Below, in pieces: positions 58,778 through 60,222 of a stretch of DNA of 64,000 nucleotides (its first letter is position 1; every line of letters begins with the position of its first letter). Source of the stretch: Candidatus Eiseniibacteriota bacterium (lineage in GTDB: Bacteria > Eisenbacteria > RBG-16-71-46 > JAFGJU01); assembly GCA_026388185.1 (NCBI GenBank), contig JAPLKG010000008.1, forward strand, positions 273,149-337,148. The letters run 5' to 3'. Below the pieces are notes generated by a model that worked only from the letters and a program-made list of their open reading frames with translations, was not told where the DNA came from and searched no databases. The translations under genes were made by a program, and so were the position numbers.

Positions 58778-58862
58778 GCGGGGATGGTGGAATTGGTAGA
58801 CACGTACGTTTGAGGGGCGTATGGGTAACCCCGTGCGGGTTCAACTCCCGCTCCCCGCACCA
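58778..58862 (+). tRNA. tRNA-Leu (anticodon GAG), encoded CCA
   Basis: 85 nt folded by hand: acceptor GCGGGGA/TCCCCGC, D arm GTG/CAC, anticodon stem TACGT/GCGTA with loop TTGAGGG, long variable arm, T arm GCGGG-TTCAACT-CCCGC, discriminator A plus CCA. Confidence 0.85.
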
Positions 58863-58944
58863 TAAATCCCATAACTGCTTGTCGCCGTGTAAGTTGGCAC
58901 GACAGACACTTTTCCTTTTCGCATCCCCAATCAACAGTGACCGA

Positions 58945-59964
58945 TCATCGTACACGCTCCCACTTCCGCACTGTAACTGAGTCTCTAACAGCGAGCATTT
59001 CGTAGATTGAACCGTCTGTCCCTACAATCCAGGGCCCCTTGCCGTAGGTTAAAGTCGAGCGTTCATACCTCGGGAAGTCAATCACGGCGAGCATTCTTCC
59101 ATCTGGAGAATATTTGCTTATCCTTTCGGACGAAGCAGTATCTGTGACCACGAAACTCTGTAGATAGACATTACTCAGACTATCTGTCCCCAAAGAGTCT
59201 CCCGGTAACTCTGCCCAGCCTTTGACCAACTTGCCTTCGTCATCAAACAGAATCGGGTTCCCTTTTACATCCACCTTGCTGTTGCACCGCGCGAAGGACC
59301 GAAAAGGACCTGTGGATGCAAAGATCCCTTCCCGCAAACTCGACAATTGGCTAGAGTCAGGGAGAACTCTTCCCCTTTCCACGAGCTTTATTGATTTCGT
59401 TGCGCGCCAATCGGCTAAATAGACATTCTCATGTTGATCCGACACAATCCCCGCCGAATTGAACTGCGGATACCCCTCTTCCGAACGGCAGAAACTCCAA
59501 GGCACTGCGACTGGCACATTTCTCACTGAATCCACGCCTGCTGCCTTCAAGAACACCCTATATCTGTCCTCCGCATCAGAAGTCTCGCAGAGAATGTATA
59601 TGTCGCCGTTAGGGGGCAGAGTCATGTCCGTGGGAAACAGTAGGTCAACTTGCCAGGCCACGGCCTTGATCGTGTCCACGAATGCTCCATTATTTCCGTA
59701 GACCTTTATGTTTCCTTTCACCCCATCATATATGTAGATGTTCCCATCGGCGCCCATAGTGAAAAATAGAGCCCCGAGATAATTCCCATCGTATCCGTAG
59801 ACCTTCTTCAGTCCGAATTCACTCTCCCCGCCACCGTACTGAGCCTGAATGAGGTTTCGGGGTCTGTAATTCTCGGCCGACAACGCGGTAGCAGGAATGA
59901 GCAAGGCCAAACCCAGCAACGCCGCGATCGATACCAGTCTTGTATTGACTCTCGAACAATCCAT
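58945..59964 (-). CDS. Hypothetical secreted protein, beta-propeller-like repeats; foreign codon usage
   Basis: ATG 59964 (complement) nine nt after AAGGAGG; signal peptide RLVSIAALLGLALLIPATALSAE; repeated GNIYIYDG / GDIYIL / NVYLAD segments; third positions A/T-rich. Confidence 0.5.
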   Translation of the reverse strand: MDCSRVNTRLVSIAALLGLALLIPATALSAENYRPRNLIQAQYGGGESEFGLKKVYGYDGNYLGALFFTMGADGNIYIYDGVKGNIKVYGNNGAFVDTIKAVAWQVDLLFPTDMTLPPNGDIYILCETSDAEDRYRVFLKAAGVDSVRNVPVAVPWSFCRSEEGYPQFNSAGIVSDQHENVYLADWRATKSIKLVERGRVLPDSSQLSSLREGIFASTGPFRSFARCNSKVDVKGNPILFDDEGKLVKGWAELPGDSLGTDSLSNVYLQSFVVTDTASSERISKYSPDGRMLAVIDFPRYERSTLTYGKGPWIVGTDGSIYEMLAVRDSVTVRKWERVR

Positions 59965-60207
59965 CAGCCACACCTCCTTAACTCGGAGAACTGGCGGATA
60001 ACACGCACCCTAGCCCAGGATGGTGATCAAGATACAGGTGCTTTACACTAAACGCCCAGAGAAGCTCAGGAGCGATTCGGGGGACACCGATACACTATAC
60101 TCTCCGATTCCTGTGCTTTGGGTCAACGCGTGACACGAGAGCACGGGATCCGTTCAAAATCCCTGACAGTTTTGCCTGAAGTTGGTCCTGTCGCAACATG
60201 GGTGAAA

Positions 60208-60222
60208 TCCCGCTCCCCGCAC
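60208..60222. repeat. Direct repeat of tRNA-Leu 3' end (candidate att site copy)
   Basis: 15/15 identity to 58846..58860, with flanking partial similarity (GGGTGAAA vs GGGTTCAAC). Confidence 0.7.

Follow-up and report, generated by a model that had tools for sequence, protein, structure and literature searches.

The window analysed here, i.e., the whole 64,000-nucleotide (nt) stretch of contig JAPLKG010000008.1 from a Candidatus Eiseniibacteriota bacterium, carries near its right end a leucine tRNA gene, tRNA-Leu(GAG), followed by small gene modules (termed cassettes) that are separated by direct repeats of the 3′ end of this tRNA. The tRNA gene, its repeats and the modules form the subject of the present analysis (Table 1). 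Around 90% of positions 1-58760 lies under plus-strand open reading frames (ORFs) with a coding-like signature in the GC content of third codon positions (GC3), and the minus-strand candidate ORFs of this interval are antisense shadows of them. This agrees with the original prediction that the first minus-strand gene appears after about 58 kb of co-directional genes.

The tRNA-Leu(GAG) gene is a core gene in a core operon, since the cluster GWxTD-PFK-FBA-PK-PFK-(GlgP)-GAPDH-PGK-TIM-SecG-tRNA-Leu(GAG) is kept in related genomes and secG-leuU of E. coli shows the same succession of secG and tRNA-Leu(GAG), forming one operon with a terminator (PMC2241853). The order gap-pgk-tpiA-secG-tRNA-Leu is also present in the related contigs L091, L094, L095, L105, L108 and L110, and the tRNA-Leu(GAG) located 3′ of secG in relatives is 95-98% identical to the window copy. 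The terminal part of the tRNA, hereafter the core, runs from the 3′ strand of the T-stem through that of the acceptor stem and the discriminator base into part of CCA, and would be the crossover region. Its first 15 nt, TCCCGCTCCCCGCAC, occur exactly twice in the window, both on one strand and at a distance of 1,362 nt, such that an intact tRNA bounds the first module on one side and a direct repeat of the tRNA 3′ end bounds it on the other. The likeness of the repeats reaches upstream into the T-arm-like GGGTGAAATCCC (23 nt, 87%), and GGGTGAAA ahead of the second copy is a mimic of the T arm.

Past position 64000, the window numbering was continued along the Logan contig L003 (SRR20698646), and such coordinates are referred to as extended. 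L003 is 100% identical to window positions 58796-64000, adds 5,258 nt and ends at extended coordinate 69258. It contains a third copy of the core, which starts 197 nt past the stop codon of the second module's STAND-WD40 gene and is identical to the tRNA 3′ end over 17 nt, CA included. The original prediction had described a tRNA-Leu(GAG) with a downstream 15-bp direct repeat and had proposed a search for a third copy in the continuation of the contig; the ARAGORN call and the exact copies bear out the former, and the latter search succeeded. It had also offered two readings of the locus, namely an islet in decay and the left end of an island that extends further: the third copy supports continuation past the window, whereas decay is contradicted by the completeness of the module.

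Table 1. Features of the tRNA-Leu(GAG) locus, followed by module order in the window and in arrays of related genomes (slashes separate modules)
Feature	Position	Strand	Content or basis
secG	58213..58758	+	Final core gene ahead of the tRNA; Pfam SecG, E 4.9e-22
tRNA-Leu(GAG)	58778-58862	+	ARAGORN; sole tRNA in the window; putative attB side, left end of array
Core copy 1	58846..58862	+	TCCCGCTCCCCGCAC+CA; exact 15-mer at 58846-58860
Cassette 1	58863-60222		One gene, NHL beta-propeller
Hairpin and T-rich run	58875..58920	+	CTTGTCGCC...GGCACGACAG ACACTTTTCCTTTTC; alignments; terminator-like right arm of junction
339-aa gene	58945-59964	-	ATG start, AAGGAGG ahead; sole gene between the repeats
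Left arm, junction 2	60127..60207	+	nhmmer arm profile, E 4e-28
Core copy 2	60208-60222	+	Exact repeat of tRNA 3′ end; cassette 1/cassette 2 boundary
Cassette 2	60223-65672 (extended)		One gene, DUF4062-STAND-WD40
STAND-WD40 gene	60695-65461 (extended; leaves window at 64000)	+	Translation, Pfam, L003
Arm 3 and core copy 3	65576-65674 (extended)	+	Arm profile
Core copy 3	65658-65672 (extended)	+	Exact 15-mer on L003; 5,450 nt past copy 2
RelA_SpoT-TPR-RyR (829 aa) and adjoining NUDIX	L003 473-3469 = extended 65790-68786	window's -	Past the third junction
Array, window			tRNA, NHL / STAND-WD40 / RelA_SpoT, NUDIX ...
Array, L101/L108			tRNA, NHL-like 340 aa / 269-aa Lectin_C-FlgD_ig / NHL-like 341 aa / >775-aa protein
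Array, L105-107			tRNA, NHL-like 335 aa / three ORFs / DUF6941-HicB-HicA / ...
Array, L110			tRNA, 212 aa / NHL-like 341 aa / ...
Array, L095			tRNA, 212 aa / CapK_C core genes
Array, L104			No tRNA on contig; MacB-type ABC transporter genes / NHL-like
Array, L100			No tRNA on contig; NHL-like / BrnT-BrnA

Recurrence of the 15-mer by chance or as an assembly artefact is so improbable that it hardly needs to be entertained. The 15-mer is indeed GC-rich and of low complexity, and when up to two mismatches were permitted, 2 of 100 shuffled sequences gave two or more matches (0.22 matches on average). Nevertheless, about 7e-5 extra exact copies on the same strand are expected by base composition in 64 kb, a third exact copy is present, the independent Logan assembly reproduces the sequence from 58796 to the window's end, and the same junctions are found in JGI, ENA and NCBI assemblies of other species. 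The two independent secG-bearing Logan contigs L001 and L002 both end at 58811 within the tRNA, while L003 starts at 58796. This break could stem from alternative continuations in the population, but was rejected as evidence of such heterogeneity: other organisms share the conserved 5′ half of the tRNA, and a k-mer graph would break there anyway.

Modules and junctions of the array

The single gene of cassette 1 encodes a protein of 339 amino acids (aa), which is exactly the NCBI entry NTX17_04240 (Candidatus Eisenbacteria bacterium) and for which Pfam and PADLOC gave no match. Its AlphaFold2 model, built with 10 sequences (predicted local distance difference test, pLDDT, 75; predicted TM-score, pTM, 0.76), matched the six-bladed NHL domains of TRIM2, Brat and Mei-P26 in a Foldseek search against the PDB (E ~5e-9), and the N-terminus forms a hydrophobic, signal-like helix. 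Judged from this model, the protein is probably a secreted or periplasmic propeller; its signal peptide and NHL beta-propeller fold rule it out as a recombinase. The family is tiny (10 clusters). Homologues were also encountered outside the tRNA arrays (L109 1074-5477, L111 5977-10346, L112 and L113), followed there by a 334-aa protein and large beta-helix/NosD/FlgD_ig/Por_Secre_tail proteins of the type IX secretion system (T9SS) kind. In L111, a Xer-like integrase gene lies 2 kb upstream of the NHL homologue, with no copy of the arm described below.

Cassette 2 encodes a protein of 1,588 aa with the architecture DUF4062 - STAND NTPase (AAA_16/nSTAND1) - NWD1-type winged helix - WD40. Both cassettes are flanked by att-like sites and devoid of integration or transfer genes, as in cis-mobilizable elements (CIMEs). 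Directly past the third junction, the RelA_SpoT-TPR-RyR and NUDIX proteins match the PADLOC candidate-defence families PDC-S33 and PDC-S07, an alarmone-synthetase-like gene being paired with a hydrolase gene. At the contig end, a 58-codon ORF with a TPR_12-like C-terminus (…LLYYAQGNYPEAEPLYKHALGIAEEILGPNHPST…; L003 14-190, plus strand; extended ~69070-69245, window's minus strand) is immediately preceded by a stop codon and resembles the remnant of a larger TPR/STAND gene.

The modules differ in base composition. The GC content of the first islet (1.35 kb) is 0.510, which is below all 574 same-sized upstream windows (mean 0.563, sd 0.015), and the GC3 of its gene is 0.565 vs 0.61-0.72 for gap, pgk, tpiA and secG. 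Cassette 2 (60223-65657), at 0.567, is similar to the core genome, and the stretch past the third repeat has a GC content of 0.526. The compositional shift that the original prediction had assigned to everything 3′ of the tRNA thus holds for the 1.35-kb islet and fails for the module next to it.

Each internal junction can be described as arm-core-hairpin, because CCA and a hairpin/T-run come after the majority of cores. Using an nhmmer profile of the left arm over 69 kb, two full-length copies only were returned; positions 60135-60222 and 65585-65672 constitute an 88-nt repeat (85% identical), the likeness ceasing at the last base of the core. The arm of junction 2 displays the blocks ACGAG / GGGAT / TTCA..AT / TTTGCCTGAAG / TGTCGCAA(C/T)ATGG and is ~80% identical to the arms of L095, L101, L104, L105 and L110. 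Pairwise comparison of 11 full arms gave a mean identity of 66% for the arm as against 89% for the last 20 nt, with ACGAG, GGGA, TTCA..AT, TCTTGCC.GAAG and TGTCGCAATATGG as near-invariant blocks. As read from these alignments, such conservation is the pattern of putative protein-binding sites plus a crossover region that would be renewed with each exchange. On the other side of the core, the position of the hairpin/T-run is kept after most cores. The hairpin behind the tRNA in the window is weak (-10 kcal/mol, no better than shuffles) and was not called in a terminator scan because its loop exceeds 8 nt; the corresponding hairpins of L101, L104 and L105 are stronger.

The edge of the core can be narrowed down from the T-loop of the tRNA. 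The window tRNA-Leu reads TTCAACT (58838-58846), the tRNAs of all five relatives read TTCAAAT, and the arms carry AAT at the matching positions. It is due to this difference that the exact repeat measures 15 nt in the window and 19 nt in the relatives. Since the window has a C where the arms and relatives have an A, the point of exchange would lie right of this base, provided that the C did not arise by later mutation.

The conserved arm and core could also serve a function other than integration, e.g., as an insulator/terminator, a processing signal or an RNA (small or tRNA-like), having multiplied by local duplication and resembling the tRNA 3′ end through functional mimicry. In accordance with this, the arm is ~80% conserved at this one locus in different species, it contains two T-arm-like motifs (GGGATCCGTTCAAAATCCC and GGGTGAAATCCC), most copies end in CCA and a hairpin/T-run usually comes next. 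However, an Rfam search of L003 gave no family for the arm, the sole return being a weak tmRNA-end match at the tRNA itself, and the folding energy of the arm is no better than that of shuffled sequences on either strand (z-scores -0.3 to -0.9). RNAalifold on the 11 arms yielded -0.48 kcal/mol, the covariation term being positive and thus unfavourable, and a compensatory change is seen in one of the 17 pairs that it predicts. Moreover, the 5′ acceptor strand is absent, and placement relative to genes is inconsistent, the arm being upstream of and antisense to the NHL gene while lying downstream of the STAND, 212-aa and ABC genes. This explanation also leaves the exact breakpoints and the cassette incongruence (see below) unaccounted for, and is considered very unlikely. 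With no Rfam match, significant fold or covariation in the arm, it does not behave as a structured RNA or tRNA-like element; a conserved structured element of this kind was what the original prediction had named as speaking against integration. The arm is instead read here as putative double-stranded, protein-binding DNA, i.e., the P arm of an attP-like site.

The arm is absent from the IMG/VR viral contigs scanned, and a blastn search of phage and plasmid collections with the arm gave no match. Seven 17-mer matches to the tRNA end in viral contigs were discarded as unrelated phage tRNAs or coding sequence. A second arm subtype, with GATATCAC.AT...TAATGTCAAAC upstream of the core, was noticed at the degenerate junctions L105_c4 (~4254-4350) and L091_c2 (~12110-12211), and more than one attP lineage may thus share the same core.

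Arrays in related genomes

Besides L095/L097 and L091, which were reached through a protein database and contig look-ups, further arrays were obtained from a pattern scan of JGI metagenomes and from contigs with homologues of the 339-aa protein, and were mapped using the arm profile. Among named organisms, the closest TpiA homologues belong to Latescibacteria bacterium DG_63 (82%; contig L091) and to metagenome-assembled genomes of Candidatus Eisenbacteria (75-80%). At least five other Eisenbacteria-like assemblies show the same arm-core junctions 3′ of secG-tRNA-Leu(GAG). The junctions were found at this position only, or on short contigs with the cassettes in question, the carriers in all being L095/L097/L102, L101/L108, L104, L100, L105-107 and L110, with a degenerate form in L091. 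About 13 complete modules were recognised in eight arrays, mostly with 1-3 genes each and 1.1-5.5 kb in size. Related NHL cassettes occupy the first position in the window, L105 and L108, the second in L110 and the third in L108.

The comparison with relatives, which the original prediction had called for, revealed the same tRNA followed by different module sets, with homology breaking exactly at the repeat; the content 3′ of the tRNA varies in this manner among L095, L105, L108, L110 and L091. In L095/L097 (TpiA 79%), arm and core lie ~1.1 kb past tRNA-Leu(GAG), after a lone 212-aa gene and directly ahead of conserved CapK_C...Wzy_C genes, and in DG_63 a degenerate copy lies 1.7 kb past the tRNA. 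In L094 (a complete genome of 2.69 Mb) and L114, which are more distantly related, FG-GAP proteins come after the tRNA, and neither arm nor repeat is present. The sequence past the last core of L095, by the CapK_C 3′ end (12690-12750), is 85% identical to L091 13100-13250, a site ~1 kb past the degenerate core of DG_63 and beyond a 220-aa gene; judged from this alignment, DG_63 may hold one more module, the junction of which has decayed past recognition.

The breakpoints coincide with the core to the base. Over 1,034 nt, cassette 1 of the window and the second cassette of L110 are 85.6% identical, and their alignment starts at the first base of the 15-mer (58846), a base that belongs to the tRNA in the former and to junction 2 in the latter. 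L110 and L095, in turn, are 80% identical over 1.9 kb (secG, tRNA, 212-aa cassette and arm) and diverge exactly past the core, while the window and L101 are homologous up to 60222 and no further. Furthermore, cassettes and core genes disagree in their similarities. Between the window and L110, the cassette gene is 86.8% identical at the nucleotide level vs 73-77% for gap, pgk, tpiA and secG; for the closest relative, L105 (TpiA 90% aa), the core genes are 81-84% identical in nucleotides and the cassette 72% (59% aa). On the strength of these identities, vertical descent does not account for the cassette similarities. The foreign origin of islet 1 is indicated by its GC content together with this incongruence, the GC content of cassette 2 not being deviant. 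The third repeat, the breaks at the repeat in relatives and the discord between cassette and housekeeping genes all favour site-specific integration into the tRNA gene, as originally predicted.

Origin of the array and comparison with known systems

Taken together, site-specific recombination at the 3′ end of tRNA-Leu(GAG) has most probably produced this locus, in which islets without an integrase are arrayed in tandem. The 15-nt repeat would represent the crossover core of a recombination system that targets this 3′ end from the T-stem through CCA. An internal junction, consisting of the ~80-nt left arm, a 17-19-nt tRNA-derived core and the hairpin/T-run, would be an attP-like hybrid (P-O-P′), generated by repeated integration of attP-sharing elements at one attB. 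In the proposed scheme, elements with a shared attP (arm-core-hairpin) recombine with the tRNA 3′ end (attB), each integration would rebuild the tRNA and shift the older modules outward, and recombination between any two cores could result in excision or reshuffling of modules. The catalyst would be a tyrosine-type recombinase provided in trans, encoded either elsewhere in the genome or by a visiting integrase-bearing element, in which case the cassettes would act like cis-mobilizable elements.

Several observations weigh against this interpretation. No recombinase of any kind was detected in the 69-kb extended window, nor among the called genes of the eight arrays (precomputed Pfam and own Pfam scans), the search reaching up to 10 kb downstream of each tRNA. 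A phmmer search with the Xer-like integrase of L111 against ORFs of at least 100 aa from the extended window and arrays matched only the query itself, although divergent or serine recombinases could be missed with a single query. The statement of the original prediction that no integrase is visible therefore extends to the related arrays. As none is encoded in any array, the recombinase acts in trans or has been lost, and the catalyst is one that we infer entirely. Apart from this, no strictly empty site was found in any close relative compared; a scan of GTDB genomes with TpiA returned only relatives from other phyla (≤61% identity), which are of no use for an empty-site comparison. Neither presence/absence polymorphism within a species nor a circular intermediate was observed, and the array was followed to the end of L003 (69258), short of its distal end. 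The native-like GC content of cassette 2 implies that it is either old or derived from a similar genome. Finally, the arm by the window NHL gene is of another subtype than those by its nearest homologues (L110 and L108); cassettes are therefore mosaic, with homologous exchange also contributing.

The lack of an integrase anywhere in the extended window or arrays would equally be expected if the locus consisted of dead relics, i.e., one or more old integrase-bearing islands that have lost their mobility genes, the internal repeats being fossil attR sites without present function. The decaying junctions (L105 c3/c4, L091 c2 and L108 c3/c4), the host-like GC content of cassette 2 and the remnant-like 58-codon TPR fragment terminating L003 are in line with this view. 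Conservation, however, is distributed in a way that neutral decay does not produce, with cores at 89% vs arms at 66% and most cores perfect over 17 nt. In addition, integrase fragments were not detected, the modules consist of intact genes with tight boundaries, and one cassette is far closer between two genomes than their housekeeping genes are, which places its transfer well after the lineage split. A purely relictual origin is thus unlikely. If it were nonetheless correct, the locus would be a clean, ordinary example of accretion at a tRNA site.

A more far-reaching possibility is a dedicated integron-like platform, in which the 3′ end of the essential, secG-linked tRNA-Leu corresponds to attI as a fixed acceptor and the ~100-nt arm and core to attC, and a recombinase supplied by the host in trans would capture, shuffle and excise single-gene cassettes as a regular activity of the cell. 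The resemblance to integrons lies in mostly single-gene, promoter-poor modules, each closed by a conserved recombination site, interspersed toxin-antitoxin genes and a varying order. All of the ~13 modules are without a recombinase, a well-conserved site closes every one of them, related cassettes take the first, second or third position among arrays, and the HicAB and BrnTA toxin-antitoxin pairs along with defence candidates recall the cargo of chromosomal integron arrays. Unlike integrons, however, the array has no intI adjoining it, its acceptor is a tRNA gene and its genes lie in both orientations, which offers no common-promoter logic. In place of an intI beside attI with a Pc promoter, the gap-pgk-tpiA-secG operon lies upstream of the array. 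The junction is not an attC imperfect palindrome folding as single-stranded DNA, the arm being devoid of an attC-like hairpin according to the z-scores and RNAalifold energy given above. The same architecture can moreover arise passively, by repeated integration followed by loss of mobility genes (PMC3146451). Such a platform can therefore be put forward only tentatively, with doubt prevailing. The same reserve applies to the proposition that it constitutes a novel form, i.e., a second, independently evolved cassette-array system of Eisenbacteria-like bacteria that uses ~100-bp double-stranded attP-like sites rather than attC hairpins. If the platform were real, its stock would consist of defence, toxin-antitoxin and secreted-protein genes.

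Tandem accretion by site-specific recombination can be compared with several known systems. Tandem islands at tRNA and transfer-messenger RNA (tmRNA) genes are well known and are normally recognised via their integrases. With the classical P4/lambda-type islands at tRNA 3′ ends, the present locus shares an identity block from the T-loop/T-stem to the tRNA 3′ end, reconstitution of the tRNA by element sequence and a direct repeat at the far end; unlike them, it has no integrase gene by the tRNA. Sublocation classes of tRNA-targeting integrases were reportedly described by Williams in 2002.

By analogy of architecture, the closest described case is that of the ssrA islands of Dehalococcoides. 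These islands follow one another in tandem and are delimited by repeats (20 bp) of the tmRNA 3′ end, each preceded by a conserved motif of 15 bp; 16 of them contain an integration module of six genes, which includes a CcrB-like serine recombinase by attL, and 15 others, without this module, have been proposed as cis-mobilizable elements (McMurdie et al. 2011, PMC3146451). Common to both systems are tandem islands past one small-RNA gene, direct repeats of ~20 bp of its 3′ end, additional conserved sequence upstream of the repeat, an insertion point at the T-loop/3′ end, content that varies between strains and the occurrence of islands without an integration module (about half of those in Dehalococcoides). 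The differences are that the target there is tmRNA and here tRNA-Leu, that the islands there are large as compared with modules of 1-3 genes here, that the conserved flank is 15 nt there and ~80-100 nt here, and that no recombinase is present in any of the eight arrays here.

In Streptococcus, CIMEs possess functional attL and attR, lack integrase and transfer genes and accrete in tandem at ICE or IME att sites (ICE, integrative and conjugative element; IME, integrative and mobilizable element; PMC5704250). As thought for CIMEs, the recombinase would be supplied by a neighbouring or incoming element. CIMEs, however, are usually located beside, or derived from, an ICE or IME with a known integrase, whereas no parent element was found here and multi-module arrays are the rule across a clade. 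The tycheposon islands of Prochlorococcus are likewise formed by cargo-bearing elements at tRNA genes; successive integrations push older elements inward, split by partial tRNA copies, and further partial tRNAs are scattered within (Hackl et al., bioRxiv 10.1101/2020.12.28.424599). The host phylum and target tRNA differ, and the tyrosine recombinase, replication module and integrase fragments of the remnants there have no counterpart here, as none of the modules yielded a gene for a recombinase, a primase or a helicase.

A literature search found no paper on genomic islands in Eisenbacteria. The arrays described here occur clade-wide in an uncultured phylum and combine minimal modules of 1-3 genes with ~100-bp junction sites and no recombinase in cis; integrase-based island finders would miss them. 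The arm-core profile could serve as a specific probe for such arrays and their cargo in metagenomes and gives exact junctions, the cargo in question comprising a large DUF4062-STAND-WD40 protein, HicAB, BrnTA and the RelA/SpoT and NUDIX genes, the last two matching candidate-defence families. Were a trans-acting enzyme to service the arrays, they would represent a compact form of cassette exchange, integron-like in outcome and based on tRNA-att chemistry.

The upstream gene cluster

The core genes ahead of the tRNA belong to a glycolysis supercluster at 48213-58067 of the window, encoding a GWxTD protein, phosphofructokinase (PFK), fructose-bisphosphate (FBP) aldolase, pyruvate kinase, a second PFK, GAPDH, PGK and TIM; the supercluster is likewise present on L001, L091, L095, L105 and L108. 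A glycogen phosphorylase gene separates the second PFK gene from that of GAPDH in L108, L110 and the window, and the cluster is without it in L091, L095 and L105. The SecG protein (181 aa) comprises a 70-aa SecG domain and a low-complexity tail of ~110 aa rich in Gly, Pro, Thr and Gln. This tail is poorly conserved, and SecG is 51-81% identical in relatives vs 75-91% for the glycolytic enzymes.

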